Virus record (IMG/VR): IMGVR_UViG_3300020030_000021
Coordinates: 1-5,063 of that record
Source: a virus
DNA length: 5,063 nt
Reading direction: 5' to 3' (one strand)
Shown here: piece after piece, positions 1 through 5,063 of the stretch
How the letters are laid out: every line of letters starts with the position of its first letter
Position numbering within the stretch: the stretch's first letter is position 1
Made by a program: the position numbers and the translations under genes
The notes under the pieces: generated by a model
The model's input: only the letters and a program-made list of their open reading frames with translations
Databases searched by the model: none
Told to the model about the DNA's origin: nothing

Positions 1-70
1 AACACAAAAATAGGCGTCACCGAAGCCAGTTACTTACTTGATGTAACTGGCGTAGGTGACGCAAAAATAA
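1..70. repeat. Terminal direct repeat, most likely the assembly overlap of a circular genome; identical to 4994..5063
   Basis: Base-by-base comparison shows 1..70 equals 4994..5063 (offset 4993). The repeat ends exactly at both window edges, as expected for a circular contig written linearly. Confidence 0.95.
14..62 (+). other. Imperfect stem-loop in the VP3-VP1 intergenic region; function unknown (candidate origin or structural element)
   Basis: GCGTCACC (14-21) pairs with GGTGACGC (55-62). GCCAGTTAC (25-33) pairs with GTAACTGGC (43-51). There is a 3x3 internal loop (GAA/GTA) and a 9-nt loop TTACTTGAT (34-42). It starts right after the VP3 stop codon (position 5006, equivalent to 13). No T-tract follows on the + strand. 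Confidence 0.8.
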
Positions 71-137
71 ACTAAAACCTAAGAATGATTTGCTTTAGGA
101 TAATTCTTAGGTTTACACTTCTAAAGAAGGTGAAAAA

Positions 138-1859
138 TTGGCTCGAAAAATTAGAGTTAGAGGACATCGTTTCAGTGATGCTCCTGCAATGTATATGCGC
201 CGGACTAAATTCGACCGCTCGCATGTCTATAAGACAACTTTCAATTCAGGTAAGCTTATACCTGTTTTCGTTGACGAGGTGCTGCCTGGCGACACTACTA
301 GGATGTCTATTAATTATTTCGCTCGCCTGGCTACTCCTATTAAGCCTATCATGGATAATATTTATCTCGACTGGTTTTTCTTTTTTGTGCCAAACCGCCT
401 TGTGTGGAACCATTGGCAGAATTTCTGCTTCGAGCAGGAAGACCCTGATGATAGTACTGATTATGTCATCCCTACTGTTACTGCTACTGGTAACGCTGAA
501 AATGGTTATGTAGGCTCTCTATGGGACTATTTCGGATTGCCCGTGAATACGTCTGGTAACTTGTCTAGTATTAACGCTCTTCCATTCCGCGCTGTCTACC
601 TCATTTGGAACGAATGGTTTCGTGACGAGAATCTCCAGAAATCCGTTAAGATCCAGAAAGGCGATACCAATGAAGTATTGGATTCTTCTCGCGCTTCTGA
701 TCAGCCTTCTTGGGTTTTCAAATCCGGTACCAATATTGTTCCCGGCTTAGCCTGTCCACCTCGCGGTAAACGTCATGATTACTTTACTTCTGCTCTTCCC
801 TGGACGCAGAAGGGACCCGGTGTATCTGTAGGCCTGGCCGGTACCGCTACCTTAGTCGACCCTTCGCCTGTTTCGGGCTATTTCGTTCAGCAATCTAATA
901 ATAGCTTGGGTGCTGCTCAGTTTTCGAAAGATGGCGGTGTTCATGATGTATTCACTGGAAACGGTTCGTTGCGGTATCAAGGTGGTTATTCCACTGCTAT
1001 AGCTGGTCACTCTGTTAACAGTTCTGGTGTTTCTACTGTTACTGCTCAACCTGGTTCTTCGTGGCTTTCTAAATCTGCTTATGCTGATTTAGATTCTTCT
1101 AGCATTTTCACCATTAACAGTCTTCGTACGGCTTTCCAAATGCAGAAGTTCTACGAACGCCTTGCTCGCGGTGGTAGTCGGTATACTGAAGTTCTTCGCT
1201 CTTTCTTCGGCGTGGTTTCTCCTGATGCTCGTCTTCAGCGTCCGGAGTTCCTGGGGTCTTTCACTAAAATGGTTAACGTCAATCCAATAGCTCAGACTTC
1301 TGCAACCGATAACACCTCTCCTCAAGGCAACCTCTCTGCTTATGGTGTTACTGCTGCTAAGTTCCATGGATTTACTAAATCTTTCGTTGAGCACGGCTAT
1401 ATTATAGGCTTCGTTTCTGCCCGCGCCGACCTAACCTATCAACAAGGCATCAATAAGATGTGGCTTCGTTCTACTGTTTACGATTTCTATTGGCCTACAT
1501 TCGCTCATCTTGGTGAGCAGGCCATTGAGCTTCGCGAGATTTACGCTCAAGGGACTGAATCTGATACTACTGTTTTCGGTTACCAGGAGCGTTATGCTGA
1601 ATATCGTTATAAACCTTCACAGATCACTGGTAAATTCCGTAGTTCTGTAACTGGTGGTAACCTTGACGTATGGCACTTATCCCAGTTTTTTAGCAATGCT
1701 CCTACTCTGAATGAGGAATTCATTATGGAAAATCCACCTATTGAGCGTATTATCGCTGTTCCCAGTGAGCCTGAGTTCCTGCTCGATGTAGGCTTCCGTT
1801 ATACTACCGTGCGTCCTATGCCTATGTTCGGTACGCCCGGTCTTGTTGATCACTTCTAG
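138..1859 (+). CDS. VP1: Major capsid protein VP1 (Microviridae F-family, gokushovirus type), 573 aa, TTG start
   Basis: Longest ORF in the window. The N-terminal block HRFSDAP..RRTKFDRSHVYKTTFNSGKLIPVFVDEVLPGDT matches the conserved gokushovirus VP1 N-terminus as I recall it. The C-terminus ..PMPMFGTPGLVDHF and the overall size fit. GAAGGTGA (126-133) lies 4 nt upstream of TTG 138. An in-frame stop sits at 108-110 and no ATG or GTG occurs before the conserved block. Stop is TAG 1857-1859. Confidence 0.95.
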   Translation: MARKIRVRGHRFSDAPAMYMRRTKFDRSHVYKTTFNSGKLIPVFVDEVLPGDTTRMSINYFARLATPIKPIMDNIYLDWFFFFVPNRLVWNHWQNFCFEQEDPDDSTDYVIPTVTATGNAENGYVGSLWDYFGLPVNTSGNLSSINALPFRAVYLIWNEWFRDENLQKSVKIQKGDTNEVLDSSRASDQPSWVFKSGTNIVPGLACPPRGKRHDYFTSALPWTQKGPGVSVGLAGTATLVDPSPVSGYFVQQSNNSLGAAQFSKDGGVHDVFTGNGSLRYQGGYSTAIAGHSVNSSGVSTVTAQPGSSWLSKSAYADLDSSSIFTINSLRTAFQMQKFYERLARGGSRYTEVLRSFFGVVSPDARLQRPEFLGSFTKMVNVNPIAQTSATDNTSPQGNLSAYGVTAAKFHGFTKSFVEHGYIIGFVSARADLTYQQGINKMWLRSTVYDFYWPTFAHLGEQAIELREIYAQGTESDTTVFGYQERYAEYRYKPSQITGKFRSSVTGGNLDVWHLSQFFSNAPTLNEEFIMENPPIERIIAVPSEPEFLLDVGFRYTTVRPMPMFGTPGLVDHF

Positions 1860-1878
1860 AAGAGGAGGAGTTGGTTAT

Positions 1879-2565
1879 ATGTCATGGCTTTCCGATACAT
1901 TAGGTAGTGTTGCTGGTTCTGTTCTTGGATCTGCAGTTCAAAATCATTACAATTCCGCTAATGCCGCACAGGCTAACGCGTGGAATGTTGAAAATTACAA
2001 GCATCGTTATCAATGGGCTGTCGATGATATGCGTGCCGCTGGTCTCAATCCTATTCTTGCTGCGACTAATGGTATAGGCGGTTCTATAGCTGGAGCTTCA
2101 GCTGCTTCCGTAGGCATGAGTGATATCGGTTCTACCATGAACTCTGCTAGATCCGCTAGTGCCGCTGAAAGGCAGGCTAAGAACGTCGAGCATCTCGCAG
2201 CGTCTCAGATTGATAGAAACTTTTCAGAAGCCAATTACTTTCGTCAGAATGCCCATGGAGTAGTTATTGACAATGGCATTAAGGCTAATAATCTGAATCT
2301 TCTCGAGCAGACCTATGAAAAACGTCTGGGCTATGAGCTTCAACGCATGGATCAGGAGTTGCAGAATCTAAGGCTTCAAGGGTCCTATCTTTCTTCAGGC
2401 ATACTTTCTAATATAGCCTCAGCTAATCAGTCTAATTCTGCCGCGGGCTTCGCGGCTCAAAATGCTCGTCTTTCGAAGCAGGAAGCTGATTTCTATGACT
2501 CATTAGGTGTTGGCAATTCAGGCCTTGGTCACATTCTTCGTGGTATTGGCTATTTATTCAAATAA
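1879..2565 (+). CDS. VP2: Minor capsid / DNA pilot protein VP2, 228 aa
   Basis: ATG 1879 is preceded by AGAGGAGGAG (1861-1870). The motif YQWAVDDMRAAGLNPILAA resembles the conserved AGLNP block of gokushovirus VP2. The protein is Ala/Ser/Gly/Asn-rich and sits immediately after VP1. The ORF-track start at 1843 (TTG) lies inside VP1 and has no SD. Confidence 0.88.
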   Translation: MSWLSDTLGSVAGSVLGSAVQNHYNSANAAQANAWNVENYKHRYQWAVDDMRAAGLNPILAATNGIGGSIAGASAASVGMSDIGSTMNSARSASAAERQAKNVEHLAASQIDRNFSEANYFRQNAHGVVIDNGIKANNLNLLEQTYEKRLGYELQRMDQELQNLRLQGSYLSSGILSNIASANQSNSAAGFAAQNARLSKQEADFYDSLGVGNSGLGHILRGIGYLFK

Positions 2566-2578
2566 AGGAGTGCGTAAC

Positions 2579-2818
2579 ATGTCTAACAAAACTACTATGA
2601 TTCTGACTTTCATCGTCACTGTTGTTGTTCCCTTTATTCAAGAAGTTGTGGATTTAATTGAAGCTCTTAAAGGTCGCTCTACTGCTTCTACTCAGCTTGT
2701 CAGTAAAGTCGCATCCGACTTTTCGCACGATGTTGACAAACTTGTTGAGCCAACTTCTAATAAGAATGATTCTAAAAAAACTAGCCGTTTTTTCGGTTCT
2801 TGGAGGGACGCTAAATGA
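2579..2818 (+). CDS. Hypothetical small membrane protein, 79 aa, N-terminal transmembrane helix
   Basis: ATG 2579 lies 8 nt after AAGGAG (2565-2570), which overlaps the VP2 stop. The sequence is MSNKTT-MILTFIVTVVVPFIQEVV- followed by a hydrophilic tail with a basic end. T-ending codon bias matches the neighbouring genes. It occupies its own non-overlapping slot. Its TGA stop overlaps the next ATG (ATGA, 2815-2818). I recognise no family. Confidence 0.6.
   Translation: MSNKTTMILTFIVTVVVPFIQEVVDLIEALKGRSTASTQLVSKVASDFSHDVDKLVEPTSNKNDSKKTSRFFGSWRDAK
2733..2761 (+). promoter_or_regulatory. Weak candidate sigma70 promoter inside the 79-aa ORF, upstream of the VP8-like gene
   Basis: TTGACA (2733-2738), 17-nt spacer, TCTAAT (2756-2761; 5/6 to TATAAT). 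It lies inside coding sequence and has no TG extension. Confidence 0.3.
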
Positions 2819-2925
2819 AACGTCGAAGATTGTCTAAGCGTGGTTCTCGTCGCCTTTTTCGGCGTACTTCCAGATCTCGTCGCAAAAATTTCAAAAGAGT
2901 AGGACGTGGTGGTTTTAGGATTTGA
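2815..2925 (+). CDS. VP8: Arginine-rich small DNA-binding protein, 36 aa (gokushovirus VP8/ORF8-like, analogue of phiX174 protein J)
   Basis: My own translation, since this ORF is not in the supplied track: MKRRRLSKRGSRRLFRRTSRSRRKNFKRVGRGGFRI. 18 of 36 residues are K or R. GGAGGG (2802-2807) lies 7 nt before the ATG. The ATGA overlap with the upstream ORF suggests translational coupling. The SRRLF core and the RGG-aromatic-basic-hydrophobic C-terminus resemble Chlamydia-phage ORF8 as I recall it. Confidence 0.75.
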   Translation: MKRRRLSKRGSRRLFRRTSRSRRKNFKRVGRGGFRI

Positions 2926-2936
2926 CAATTTGACAA
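2921..2936 (+). repeat. Exact 8-bp tandem duplication TTTGACAA x2, giving two phased -35 boxes
   Basis: TTTGACAA at 2921-2928 and again at 2929-2936, followed by the related TCTGAC. The pair is bracketed by the 7-bp inverted repeat AGGATTT (2917-2923) / AAATCCT (2944-2950). Confidence 0.9.
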
Positions 2937-2958
2937 TCTGACTAAATCCTGATACAAT
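2930..2958 (+). promoter_or_regulatory. Near-consensus sigma70 promoter with extended -10, upstream of VP4
   Basis: TTGACA (2930-2935), exactly 17 nt, then TG-a-TACAAT (TG 2950-2951; -10 at 2953-2958). The predicted start near 2965 leaves only about 11 nt of leader containing AGGTGA before ATG 2976. Confidence 0.6.
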
Positions 2959-2975
2959 CAGTACAGGTGATAAGT

Positions 2976-3887
2976 ATGGTTTGTTATAATCCGATATTAA
3001 TGTACCCAGTCGAAGGAGCGTTTACAAAAAATGGTAAGCAACACTATTCCTTCTACGGCAGCCTTTCCTCTCACCCTGAACTTGCTAACGATAGCCGTTT
3101 CATTCGTTGTTCTTGCAAACAATGTATCGGCTGTCGGCTCGAAAACTCTCGTCAATGGGCTGTCAGAGCTGTTCACGAAGCCCGTACTTCGTCTTCAGCT
3201 TATTTCGTTACGTGTACCTTCGACGATTATCATCTGCCGCATGATAGAAGCTTAAGCAAAAAATTTCATCAGACTTTCATGAAAAATCTTCGTCGAGAGT
3301 ATGGCAGTGGTATTCGCTTCCTCGGCTGTGGTGAATATGGTGAACTTCATGGTCGCCCCCATTATCATTACATATTGTTTAATATTGATTTCGCTGACAA
3401 AATTTTTCGGTTCCGTACAGACGGTTATAATACTTATACTTCTTCTCGCTTTTCCAAAATATGGAAATACGGTATGCATCTTATTGGCGAGTTTAGTTAT
3501 GATTCTGCTGCCTATGTCGCGCGTTACATAGTGAAGAAACAGACTGGCAGTAATGCTGCTGCTCATTATAAAGGCCGTACGCCTGAGTTTATGCTCGCAT
3601 CCAATCGTCCCGGTATAGGCGGAAAATGGCTTGAAGAGCATGGTGAGGAGTGTTATGCTAATGATTTCGTTGTCATCAACGGTAAGAAGATGCGTCCTCC
3701 TCGTTACTATGACAATAAGTTTGATGAAACCCATCCTCACTGGATGGAATATATTCGTAATAATCGTATTGAGAAGATGCTTCATAACTTGGAGAACAAT
3801 ACTTTCGAACGCTTAATCGACCGCTGCCGCGTTCAGGAAGGTAAGTATAAGCATTTTCTCGGCAGAAAGCTTGACAAAGTATTGTGA
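2976..3887 (+). CDS. VP4: Replication initiation protein VP4 (HUH rolling-circle endonuclease), 303 aa
   Basis: Motif I FVTCTF (3204-3221). HUH motif RPHYHYILF (H-Y-H at 3360-3368). Tyrosine motif YVARYIVKK (3513-3539). Cys cluster CSCKQCIGCRLENSRQWAVR is typical of gokushovirus VP4. ATG 2976 lies 5 nt after AGGTGA (2965-2970) and gives the N-terminus MVCYNP. The in-frame GTG at 2967 has no SD. Stop is TGA 3885-3887. Confidence 0.93.
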   Translation: MVCYNPILMYPVEGAFTKNGKQHYSFYGSLSSHPELANDSRFIRCSCKQCIGCRLENSRQWAVRAVHEARTSSSAYFVTCTFDDYHLPHDRSLSKKFHQTFMKNLRREYGSGIRFLGCGEYGELHGRPHYHYILFNIDFADKIFRFRTDGYNTYTSSRFSKIWKYGMHLIGEFSYDSAAYVARYIVKKQTGSNAAAHYKGRTPEFMLASNRPGIGGKWLEEHGEECYANDFVVINGKKMRPPRYYDNKFDETHPHWMEYIRNNRIEKMLHNLENNTFERLIDRCRVQEGKYKHFLGRKLDKVL

Positions 3888-3899
3888 CTGTGTTATTAT
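3871..3899 (+). promoter_or_regulatory. Near-consensus sigma70 promoter with extended -10, overlapping the VP4 3' end
   Basis: TTGACA (3871-3876), exactly 17 nt, then TG-t-TATTAT (TG 3891-3892; -10 at 3894-3899). The architecture is the same as the 2930..2958 promoter. Confidence 0.6.
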
Positions 3900-3917
3900 T
3901 AAGTCAGAAACGAGGTG

Positions 3918-4157
3918 ATGCTTATTAGTGAACTTGAAGCTATTGAAAATTTCTGTAGAAAACGTGATATTTTTTTTAATTACTCTTTTCGTGGGAGTAA
4001 ATATGCCGCTTACCGCCTTAAACCTGATGATTCCAGAGTTATTCGCCTTGATAATGACTATTATGTCATATCAGCTACGCTATATCTCATGATTCGTAGG
4101 TATTTAGTCGCATTTAGAAAAGGAGATGGTTCCGATAAGACTATATTCCATTTATGA
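3918..4157 (+). CDS. Hypothetical protein, 79 aa from ATG 3918 (80 aa from GTG 3915); no recognised family
   Basis: Open frame between VP4 and VP5. By my count about 52% of third positions are T, against about 26% of first and 32% of second positions, which supports coding in this frame. It lies downstream of the 3871..3899 promoter. Weak points: GAGGTGA (3912-3918) overlaps the start codon, so SD spacing is poor, and the 3' end overlaps the VP5 start by 32 nt. Confidence 0.5.
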   Translation: MLISELEAIENFCRKRDIFFNYSFRGSKYAAYRLKPDDSRVIRLDNDYYVISATLYLMIRRYLVAFRKGDGSDKTIFHL

Positions 4158-4416
4158 CAACAAGGCTGAACAGTTCAGCCCTCCGCAGGTCTACCACAAT
4201 GACATGCTCGCTCTGCGAGCTTTCGAAGGTTTGGTTAATGATGATAAGACTCTTATTAACAGTTATCCTGAAGATTTCAGTCTTCATTATGTCGGTAACC
4301 TTGGCGATTCTGATGGCCGTTACTATATTGATGGTTCTGACGAAACCCGCGTTCCTGTACTGGTTGGTCGCGCCGTAGATTACGTGCAGGATGTTGACAA
4401 AGACGCTATTAAATGA
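4126..4416 (+). CDS. VP5: Non-structural protein VP5 (gokushovirus ORF5 family), 96 aa
   Basis: The N-terminus MVPIRLYSIYDNKAEQFSPP matches the conserved ..YD.KAE.f.pP.. signature of gokushovirus VP5 as I recall it. The PEDF/Y..h.lG block (YPEDFSLHYVGNLGD) is also present. Size and position (after VP4, before VP3) fit. AGGAG (4121-4125) directly abuts the ATG, an unusual zero spacing. Tandem stops TGA TAA at 4414-4419. Confidence 0.8.
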   Translation: MVPIRLYSIYDNKAEQFSPPQVYHNDMLALRAFEGLVNDDKTLINSYPEDFSLHYVGNLGDSDGRYYIDGSDETRVPVLVGRAVDYVQDVDKDAIK

Positions 4417-4444
4417 TAAACTGATATAGAGCGTATCAGAAAAA

Positions 4445-4475
4445 GGACGGTCTCGCAAGAGATCGCCCTTTTTTT
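4445..4475 (+). terminator. Rho-independent terminator after VP5
   Basis: GGACGGTCTC (4445-4454) pairs with GAGATCGCCC (4459-4468): 10 positions with one A.C mismatch and one G.T wobble. The loop is the GNRA tetraloop GCAA. A T7 run follows (4469-4475). It is preceded by an A-tract (4440-4444), so the element looks symmetric. Confidence 0.8.
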
Positions 4476-4477
4476 GT

Positions 4478-4503
4478 GCGCCACGCCCGCCGCGTCTAGG
4501 CGC
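4478..4503 (+). other. GC-rich stem-loop between the terminator and the VP3 ribosome-binding site
   Basis: GCGCC (4478-4482) pairs with GGCGC (4499-4503). An inner stem CGC (4484-4486) pairs with GCG (4492-4494). 27 of the 33 nt in 4476-4508 are G or C, in an otherwise AT/T-rich genome. The region contains the 8-bp palindrome AGGCGCCT (4498-4505). Confidence 0.55.
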
Positions 4504-4523
4504 CTGCGAAAGGAGGTGAAACT

Positions 4524-5006
4524 ATGAAGTTTAGAACAGCTTACGATCCTGTCGAAGAACATGACCATTGCGGCATTGAATTCACCATGCCCTCCCTCAC
4601 GGTTCAGGACGAAAAGGATGAAACTGATATTAACTACATCGTTAATAAGTATGCAGATGGTCAGAAAGGTATAGCCACTCTGGACCTCGGCGATAGTTCG
4701 CAATACGCTTATCTACAGTTCGGAGATGCAACGCTCCCTGGCGACTACAGCACAGCGTTAGAGCTTGTGTCCGGAGTTCGTGAAGAATTCTACAGTCTTC
4801 CCGCTTACGTTCGAGCTAAATTCGGTCACGATCCCATGAATTTCATCCAACAATTAAATGATCCTGCAACGCTCGAATATCTCCAACAACAAGGTCTGTA
4901 TGGTAGTGAATATACCTTTGATGAACCACAACAGTCCGTAATTAATAAACAAACACAAGAAAAAAGTAACACTTTAGAACAAAATAATGAAGAAACACAA
5001 AAATAG
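4524..5006 (+). CDS. VP3: Internal scaffolding protein VP3, 160 aa
   Basis: PSLTVQDEKDETDINYIVNKY matches the conserved PS.T.Q.f.de.DIN.Iv..f block of gokushovirus VP3. The later blocks F..LPA.vR..F..dP..F and the acidic/Gln-rich tail also fit. AGGAGGTGA (4511-4519) is a full 9-nt match to the anti-SD and ends 4 nt before the ATG. Stop is TAG 5004-5006. Confidence 0.85.
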   Translation: MKFRTAYDPVEEHDHCGIEFTMPSLTVQDEKDETDINYIVNKYADGQKGIATLDLGDSSQYAYLQFGDATLPGDYSTALELVSGVREEFYSLPAYVRAKFGHDPMNFIQQLNDPATLEYLQQQGLYGSEYTFDEPQQSVINKQTQEKSNTLEQNNEETQK

Positions 5007-5063
5007 GCGTCACCGAAGCCAGTTACTTACTTGATGTAACTGGCGTAGGTGACGCAAAAATAA
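4994..5063. repeat. Second copy of the terminal overlap (identical to 1..70), including a second copy of the intergenic stem-loop at 5007..5055
   Basis: Identical to 1..70 by direct comparison. It contains the last 13 nt of VP3 plus the stem-loop. Confidence 0.95.

Follow-up and report, generated by a model that had tools for sequence, protein, structure and literature searches.

ORF79 and Its Place in the Genome

The stretch of DNA analyzed in this study, referred to as the window, comprises 5,063 nucleotides (positions 1 to 5,063 of the IMG/VR virus record IMGVR_UViG_3300020030_000021) and represents a complete circular gokushovirus genome with a unit length of 4993 nt. Gokushoviruses are among the most abundant single-stranded DNA (ssDNA) phages in guts and oceans. 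The circle was assembled with an overlap, visible as an exact 70-nt terminal direct repeat (window positions 1-70 are identical to 4994-5063). The genes of the window were named by profile searches (Table 1). An open reading frame (ORF) of 79 codons, here called ORF79, lies between the genes for VP2 and VP8; a first-pass annotation, made from the letters of the DNA alone, had put it forward as a candidate single-gene lysis (Sgl) or membrane-targeting protein. The observations described below identify ORF79 beyond reasonable doubt as a genuine gene of a VP1-VP2-ORF79-VP8 late block. Its existence as such is not new, as it is already contained in databases as a hypothetical protein and as an unnamed PHROG.

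ORF79 extends from an ATG at 2579-2581 to a TGA at 2816-2818. Since VP2 already ends at 2565, it occupies a slot of its own and is not overprinted on another gene, just as the first-pass annotation had stated. The Shine-Dalgarno (SD) sequence of its own and the genome-typical codon bias claimed there were found as well: the spacing of AGGAG (2566-2570) to the start codon is 8 nt, the third-position T content of 0.52 compares with 0.46-0.53 in most other genes (VP3: 0.33), and a score similar to the codon adaptation index, calculated against the core genes, amounts to 0.70 for ORF79 versus 0.39 and 0.52 for two off-frames. At its 3′-end, the ATG of VP8 (2815-2817) overlaps the ORF79 stop codon as ATGA (2815-2818). 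No promoter-like site was detected directly upstream of ORF79, the sole match of this region (2574-2601, 9/12) straddling the start codon. This lack of an upstream promoter suggests that ORF79 is probably located on the same message as VP1, VP2, and VP8.

Selection on ORF79

In the related loci first fetched, ORF79 was open in all cases (83/83), with 82 of the encoded proteins being 79 aa long and one 78 aa, and over all fetched loci it was intact in 95 of 96. In the sole disrupted member (L161, ~4868-5180), 55 nt close to the 3′-end are tandemly duplicated, which leads to a frame shift and truncation just past the SRF motif described below; the duplication may have arisen in assembly or be a natural variant. 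In the annotated frame, the ratio of nonsynonymous to synonymous substitution rates (dN/dS, Nei-Gojobori) was 0.15, and in four of the other five frames it was 1.2-2.0, the antisense frame sharing third positions giving 0.24. The same measure yielded 0.156 for VP1, 0.227 for VP2, 0.109 for VP8, 0.075 for VP4, 0.170 for VP5, 0.121 for VP3, and 0.32 for the additional ORFx. The value for ORF79 matches that of VP1, which indicates a constraint equal to that on the capsid gene. Absence or interruption of the frame in close relatives and a dN/dS of about 1, the outcomes that the first-pass annotation had named as speaking against a functional protein, were not what was observed, L161 excepted.

The constraint is unevenly distributed along the gene. 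Over codons 1-25, the proportion of nonsynonymous differences (pN) was 0.01-0.02 at a proportion of synonymous differences (pS) of 0.4-0.5, and residues 1-30 are nearly unchanging among the relatives; for L9, L26, and L30, six codons each were found for a single residue. In the middle region pN reached 0.13-0.19. Over the final 25-30 codons, pS collapses to 0.10-0.16 in the close clade. In the same clade, column identity is 0.96-0.99 across the near-invariant stretch that overlies the 3′-end of ORF79 (Table 1), with an invariant run at 2777-2799 (AAAACTAGCCGTTTTTTCGGTTC).

Three further possibilities for this region were considered. An RNA hairpin as cause of the invariant 3′-end is unsupported, as no significant fold was found (z = +0.52). 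A frameshift fusion of VP2 and ORF79 was rejected, as the upstream frame (from GTG 2507) is open in only 9-13 of 85 relatives, and so was an ORF in the third frame (2658-2837), which is open in only 30 of 82.

Predicted Protein Anatomy

The ORF79 protein has the sequence MSNKTTMILTFIVTVVVPFIQEVVDLIEALKGRSTASTQLVSKVASDFSHDVDKLVEPTSNKNDSKKTSRFFGSWRDAK. Its hydrophobic core reaches from T6 to I20 (15 residues) and contains the invariant residues I8, L9, F11, P18 (2630-2632), and F19. The first-pass annotation had described an N-terminal transmembrane helix with a central Pro18. The hydrophobic helix was confirmed and the proline is invariant, but its position is not central, since Pro18 is residue 13 of the 15. 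The best 19-residue Kyte-Doolittle mean is 2.07 for ORF79 and 1.78-2.07 among the family members tested. On the Hessa scale, the summed free energy (dG) amounts to -0.5 kcal/mol over 15 residues, compared to -3.4 over 19 residues for phiX174 E.

AlphaFold2, run with a 39-sequence alignment, predicts a single long helix over residues 3-56, with a predicted local distance difference test (pLDDT) score of 90-97 over residues 1-30 and of 48-60 beyond, and a disordered C-terminus. The conserved residues K4, I8, F11, V15, P18, E22, D25, and A29 are spaced 4-3-4-3, which places them on one face of the helix that extends along the hydrophobic core and on into the acidic segment. In the predicted model, this conserved face would resemble a specific helix-helix interface. 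The helix is flanked by K4 on its N-terminal side and by E22, D25, and E28 on its C-terminal side, charges that would favour an N-in/C-out orientation by the positive-inside rule. The final 15 residues contain 5 K/R and 1 D, in agreement with the basic-ended tail noted in the first-pass annotation.

Inspection of alignment A2 revealed no conserved signal-peptidase (AxA-type) site; the residues past the core read QEVVD.I, and the only small residue past the core, A29, sits 9 residues beyond and is replaced by D, S, or M elsewhere in the family. By this inspection, ORF79 does not look like a protein secreted by means of a cleavable Sec signal peptide, for which conserved small residues at -3 and -1, located 3-7 residues past the core, would be expected.

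Table 1. Coordinates of the genes of the window and of features within and around ORF79.
Feature	Coordinates	Strand	Remarks
VP1	138-1859		major capsid
VP2 (DNA pilot protein)	1879-2565	+	phrog_8693 at 1.8e-77; directly upstream of ORF79
ORF79 SD AGGAG	2566-2570	+	8 nt upstream of ATG
ORF79	2579-2818	+	79 aa plus stop; PHROG 23638 member
Predicted transmembrane helix, residues 5-22	2591-2644	+	hydropathy, AlphaFold2 helix pLDDT 90-97, low pN
Acidic amphipathic juxtamembrane helix VVDLIEALKGR, residues 23-33	2645-2677	+	D25 invariant; I27, L30 near-invariant
Variable linker, residues 34-64	2678-2770	+	pN 0.13-0.19; pLDDT 48-60; length varies across family
Near-invariant nucleotide stretch	2745-2815	+	overlies ORF79 3′-end; contains VP8 SD GGAGGG (2802-2807)
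Basic-aromatic C-terminal tail SKKTSRFFGSWRDAK, residues 65-79	2771-2815	+	motif [SG]RF[FLIW] at residues 69-72 (2783-2794)
VP8	2815-2925	+	36 aa, Arg-rich, J-like DNA-binding; weak phrog_10695 match
VP4	2976-3887		Rep
ORFx	3915-4157		extra 80-aa ORF
VP5	4126-4416		
VP3	4524-5006		scaffold

The ORF79 Family and Its Distribution

ORF79 matches PHROG 23638 at E = 2.2e-43, with residues 1-79 aligned to profile positions 1-79 of 79, and seven divergent homologs match the same profile at 1e-20 to 6e-10. PHROG 23638 is annotated as being of unknown function and is confined to one clade of animal-gut gokushoviruses. The closest GenBank records of the window are gokushoviruses from human, pig, and dog gut (~86% nucleotide identity), in which the homolog is either unannotated or labelled “hypothetical protein.” One such family member is the hypothetical protein ARQ16029.1 of Human gut gokushovirus SH-CHD9, and in KX513872, MG945759, and others the homolog likewise comes after VP2. 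A search of 5.8 billion proteins yielded 494 ORF79 protein clusters at 90% identity, and 235 ORF79 loci were found in IMG/VR; the longer IMG/VR contigs of this clade are concatemers and not prophages. An exhaustive profile search of 50%-identity representatives gave only 31 matches, of which those inspected were small microvirus proteins, fragments, or assembly chimeras, with the exception of two long repeat proteins (P0134, P0149).

Family members at 36-55% identity are 75-100 aa long and share the N-terminus MSNKTTxILTF..S...PFIQE.VDFI..LK, in which I8, L9, F11, P18, F19, and D25 are invariant. At the C-terminus they share the motif [SG]RF[FLIW], with R70 and F71 invariant in alignment A2, and R70 invariant and F71 nearly so in alignment A3. 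The linker between these two parts varies in length and sequence across the family. In distant members, the SRF motif is encoded by different codons (AGC CGT TTT, TCG AGA TTT, AGT CGC TTC, and others), which argues for selection at the protein level.

The position of the gene is conserved as well. In four distant members (L084, L085, L086, and L087), the homolog follows directly after VP2, precedes a VP8-like gene, and always has a strong SD; strong SD sequences of distant members are TAGGAGGT, TGGAGGAG, and TTGGAGGGA. In every family member, the spacing between VP2 and the ORF79 homolog is either a 2-14 nt gap or a short overlap. The ATGA coupling to the next gene, which the first-pass annotation had mentioned, applies to the window and the close clade only; L085 has a TGATG overlap, and in L087, L086, and L084 the VP8-like gene follows after a gap of ~40-100 nt. 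The VP2 type and ORF79 co-occur in nearly identical sets of records.

The VP2-VP8 Slot in Other Gokushoviruses

For a wider comparison, 78 gokushovirus genomes were annotated and the slot was compared wherever the gene order was VP1-VP2-[slot]-VP8-VP4; in Chp2 and phiMH2K, where VP2 is followed by VP3, the order differs. Since an automated survey of the slot yields many spurious off-frame ORFs, only families that had been re-checked were relied on. The slot was found to contain a member of the ORF79 family, of the MID-32 family, or of the MNKWF-26 family, a single hydrophobic ORF of 39 aa (L107), or nothing. Proteins of the MID-32 family (32-36 aa, MIDTILKFVNVLLNSGSAIWEAFKAVKKLFKK; 8 genomes, pN/pS 0.17) start with an ATG that overlaps the VP2 stop and occupy the slot in L099-L105, L090, and L092. 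The MNKWF-26 family (25-26 aa, MNKWFSALCVAIGAAATYLGQFLFGK; strong SD, pN/pS 0.30) occupies it in L139, L142, L149, and L165, and in L091 (3713-3793) is located in the VP1-VP2 gap instead. Profile comparison detected no relationship between the ORF79, MID-32, and MNKWF-26 families, and neither of the latter two has an annotated function, the MID ORF giving only a chance-level match in PHROG (phrog_2556, E = 0.03) and the MNKWF ORF none.

The first-pass annotation had raised the question whether related microviruses carry a small membrane ORF at this place. Small hydrophobic ORFs are indeed present in several clades; in L113, L132, and the six-gene gokushovirus EC6098, however, the slot is empty. 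Junctions of the late operon are hence a recurrent home of unrelated small hydrophobic proteins, each under purifying selection.

Comparison With Known Lysis Proteins

Searches for known relatives of ORF79 outside its own family were negative. Apart from two chance matches, no Pfam family was found at E ≤ 0.1, and NCBIfam, PADLOC, PDB sequence profiles, and Foldseek against BFVD gave chance-level matches only. Comparison of the family profile with known small microvirus proteins by hhalign resulted in probabilities of 0.3% for phiX174 E, 0.6% for phiX174 K, and 0.3% for phiMH2K OrfN. The missing similarity to E, both in Pfam and by hhalign, is in line with what the first-pass annotation had reported. 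In addition, profile searches of the complete 4993-nt genome revealed no endolysin, peptidase, muralytic, or E-like domain. A role of ORF79 as holin is not supported on this basis, since holins act together with an endolysin of the phage, usually encoded next to them. Sgl proteins are a functional class, characterized by host lysis upon expression of the single gene; one trait of this class, a small protein (here 79 aa) without a muralytic domain in a phage without endolysin, does apply to ORF79.

Protein E of phiX174 is an Sgl protein that inhibits MraY and needs SlyD. ORF79 and E have in common that they are small microvirus proteins, that a hydrophobic helix bearing a conserved proline lies at the N-terminus, and that the C-terminal part is basic. 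Each gene directly precedes one of the J/VP8 type (in phiX174, position 843 is the end of E and 848 the start of J), and neither genome contains an endolysin. There is, however, no sequence relationship between the two. E overlaps the external-scaffold gene D, in whose +1 frame it is encoded, whereas ORF79 is free-standing; to our knowledge, gokushoviruses do not have a D gene. The core of ORF79 is shorter and weaker, its proline is located at the end of the core instead of mid-helix, and its acidic juxtamembrane helix suggests the opposite topology; moreover, unlike E, ORF79 possesses a conserved C-terminal motif and a strong SD. Of the broad likeness to E that had been proposed, the N-terminal hydrophobic helix, the proline, and the basic tail are supported, whereas the short core, the position of the proline, and the suggested topology weaken the analogy.

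Sgl proteins of ssRNA phages (MS2 L, LysM of phage M, and metagenomic Sgls) are unrelated small proteins, most of them with one transmembrane domain, that have arisen repeatedly (PMC7693330). This parallels the VP2-VP8 slot with its several unrelated small hydrophobic ORFs. ORF79 differs from the ssRNA-phage proteins in being free-standing and constrained like the capsid gene, as those mostly lie within other genes and show little conservation. Further small hydrophobic accessory proteins from microviruses, in this respect like ORF79, are phiX174 K and phiMH2K OrfN; for OrfN, the annotation reads “similar to phiX174 E and K.” Both are overprinted, and the positional analog of OrfN in the window is an ORF inside VP4 (3301-3531) and not ORF79.

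A Possible Role in Envelope Disruption or Egress

We propose, at a probability of about 35%, that ORF79 is a single-pass membrane protein that acts as an envelope-disruption or egress effector of the Sgl type, and we regard it as the best stand-alone candidate for the lysis function of this virus. The predicted architecture consists of a 4-residue N-terminus with one lysine, a near-invariant helix of ~18 residues, an acidic amphipathic helix continuous with it, a flexible and fast-evolving linker, and a C-terminal SRF[FL]G.WR. According to this proposal, the helix would insert into the cytoplasmic membrane of the host, where its conserved face would bind a particular partner; docking of a second partner would fall to the tethered C-terminal peptide. 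ORF79 might thereby bind and block a conserved membrane step of cell-wall synthesis, or else perturb the membrane, an action that would be analogous to that of phiX174 E and not homologous.

Several observations are consistent with a lysis function. ORF79 is the only stand-alone ORF of the genome with a hydrophobic helix, ORFx being devoid of one, and E takes a comparable place in phiX174, as it ends 5 nt before J, the analog of VP8. The unrelated constrained ORFs found in the slot resemble the repeated independent origin of Sgl genes, and other microvirus families carry lysis-associated accessory genes between VP1 and VP4 (PMC9239249). Apart from peptidases acquired now and then, no gokushovirus lysis gene is named in the literature consulted (PMC7062461, PMC3394797), in agreement with the statement of the first-pass annotation that none had been identified.

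A number of points weigh against this interpretation. ORF79 shows no homology to any lysis protein in the searched databases and profile comparisons. Its strong SD and, in the close clade, its coupling to the abundant VP8 suggest high expression, which would be unusual for a timed lysis toxin. The 30 N-terminal residues are far more conserved than those of typical fast-evolving Sgls and in this respect resemble a structural gene. The conserved SRF[FL] element at the C-terminus hints at a partner on which it docks, and such an element on a flexible tether fits scaffolding or tethering at least equally well. The core is rather short for a transmembrane helix, its hydrophobicity is marginal, and the proline lies at its C-terminal end; the acidic helix that follows would favour N-in/C-out, the opposite of E. 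Furthermore, EC6098 lyses E. coli despite its empty slot (PMC7062461), which implies that gokushoviruses have some other lysis route. Finally, the genome contains an alternative candidate for a lysis gene, namely the overprinted hydrophobic ORF in VP4 (3301-3531).

This overprinted ORF lies in the +1 frame and encodes a very hydrophobic protein of 76 aa. It is open in 68 of 68 relatives, and starts with ATG in 67 of them, and its relative place within Rep matches that of phiMH2K OrfN. Similar +1 ORFs are present in EC6098, L087, and L090, and the synonymous diversity of VP4 dips at 3267-3440. As a rival lysis gene it is conceivable but unsupported, since shuffling of synonymous codons showed that the +1 open run of 84 observed is equal to the 84 ± 22 expected (p = 0.45).

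Alternative Functions

The first-pass annotation had treated other roles as equally possible, a caution that appears appropriate. The foremost alternative, a serious rival though of lower probability, is an accessory protein for morphogenesis, packaging, or DNA delivery that is tethered to the membrane. Here the helix would be anchored in the membrane or packed on VP2 and the SRF[FL] peptide would dock to VP1, VP2, or VP8, by which the protein might localize assembly or packaging to the membrane or assist the VP2 conduit at the next infection. Such a role would agree with the location of the gene between two structural genes, directly after VP2 in every member, with its close-clade coupling to VP8, its strong SD, and its presence in nearly the same set of records as the VP2 type. 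It would also agree with a constraint equal to that on structural genes and with the layout of anchor, flexible linker, and terminal motif. It can be counted in its favour as well that the phiX174 proteins B and J bind to the coat protein through aromatic peptides at their C-termini. On the other hand, many gokushoviruses, such as EC6098, L113, and L132, assemble and infect without ORF79, the searches run here revealed no similarity to any virion protein, and a replacement by unrelated small hydrophobic ORFs, as seen in sister clades, would be unusual for a part that has to fit a conserved capsid.

A serious rival as well, though a rather unlikely one, is a membrane protein for superinfection exclusion or host takeover, in this case a type II protein with N-in/C-out orientation whose outside C-terminal domain would block genome delivery or alter an envelope function. 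The flanking charges, the lack of a conserved signal-peptidase site (with A, D, S, or M at position 29), and the nature of ORF79 as a clade-restricted accessory gene are compatible with it, and carriage of EC6098 confers superinfection immunity (PMC7062461). EC6098, however, shows this immunity without ORF79, and one would expect a purely lytic 5-kb genome to shed such a gene more frequently than the 1 case in 96 observed. In PADLOC, the sole match was a weak one to the model of a 4TM effector (E = 0.004, 14 bits), well short of what a true member of a family would score.

Functions outside all those discussed in this section and the preceding one are rather unlikely, too. Still more improbable is a soluble protein with the N-terminal helix buried in a protein interface, either in a coiled-coil oligomer or in a complex with VP2 or VP3. 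The core of just 15 residues, rich in beta-branched residues and of marginal dG, and the heptad-like 4-3-4-3 stripe continuing into the amphipathic helix would fit such an arrangement; the 19-residue mean hydropathy (1.78-2.07), however, exceeds the usual threshold of 1.6 in every member tested, and Thr, Ser, and Pro on one face are common in the packing of membrane helices. A non-functional ORF79, open by chance or conserved solely through an overlapping nucleotide element, as the nearly invariant nucleotides of its final ~25 codons in the close clade might suggest, is effectively refuted by the abundant synonymous and almost absent amino-acid change in codons 1-50, by its dN/dS compared to that of four of the five other frames, and by motifs that divergent members keep with different codons.

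Further Features of the Genome

The start of VP2 is probably ATG 1879, which has a properly spaced SD and is preceded by GAGGAGGAG, rather than the mechanically assigned TTG 1843, and that of VP4 is probably ATG 2976 (preceded by AGGTGAT, a properly spaced SD) rather than GTG 2967. VP8 ends with RGGFRI, which is common to the VP8 proteins of other gokushoviruses. ORFx, between VP4 and VP5, lacks a hydrophobic helix and gave no family match in profile searches; it is intact in 69 of 69 relatives (dN/dS 0.32) and overlaps the start of VP5 by 32 nt.

The intergenic region between VP3 and VP1 contains a DNA hairpin at 5007-5055 (repeated at 14-62) with a folding energy of -19.7 kcal/mol (z = -7.6). 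Its loop (5027-5035, TTACTTGAT) has ACTTGAT in common with the nick site of the phiX174 origin, CAACTTG/ATATTAATAAC. The 12-mer ACTTGATGTAAC is present on the + strand of 124 of the 178 fetched loci, including EC6098; 117 loci contain it exactly once, and seven longer or terminally redundant contigs contain two copies. Judging from these sequence features, the site in the hairpin loop is likely to be the Rep nick site or origin.

Near-consensus sigma-70 promoters with a TG-extended -10 element were found at 2930-2958 (before VP4), 3871-3899 (ORFx/VP5), and 4394-4422 (VP3). Nearly invariant sequence surrounds the first of these and includes the inverted repeat AGGATTT...AAATCCT (2917-2952), and just downstream of the last one a terminator-like hairpin with a T-run is located (4448-4465).

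Regarding the host, the strong AGGAGG-type SDs on the genes of the window argue against a member of the Bacteroidota. Scanning of one genome collection revealed only one distant relative, a 5.5-kb microvirus contig binned in a Clostridiales metagenome-assembled genome, which is weak host evidence; host assignments based on binning have been warned to be error-prone (PMC9239249). According to a CRISPR study, gut relatives of phiMH2K fall in a clade targeted by Firmicutes (PMC8530359). The host may be a gut Firmicute.

Significance of ORF79

To the picture drawn by the first-pass annotation, the present analysis adds the evidence for strong selection, the domain anatomy, the family-wide motifs, the restriction to one gut clade, and the unrelated small hydrophobic genes at the same junction in sister clades. 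A more far-reaching proposal, which we put forward only tentatively, is that ORF79 could be the first lysis protein outside the phiX174-like microviruses, a new Sgl “protein antibiotic” whose invariant transmembrane face would block a conserved membrane step of cell-wall synthesis, and that the VP2-VP8 junction could be a hot-spot of repeatedly acquired, unrelated small membrane proteins for lysis (ORF79, MID-32, and MNKWF-26). We know of no Sgl for gut Firmicutes.

ORF79 represents a short, clonable, and strongly conserved lysis candidate, with P18, F11, D25, and the C-terminal SRF as targets for mutation. Should it prove to be a true Sgl, what it targets would represent a previously unrecognized weak spot of cell-wall biogenesis. 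If it is not, ORF79 would still be a clade-defining predicted membrane protein that is constrained like the capsid. ORF79 and the unrelated ORFs of this slot jointly mark a functional module of gokushovirus genomes that has so far gone unstudied.

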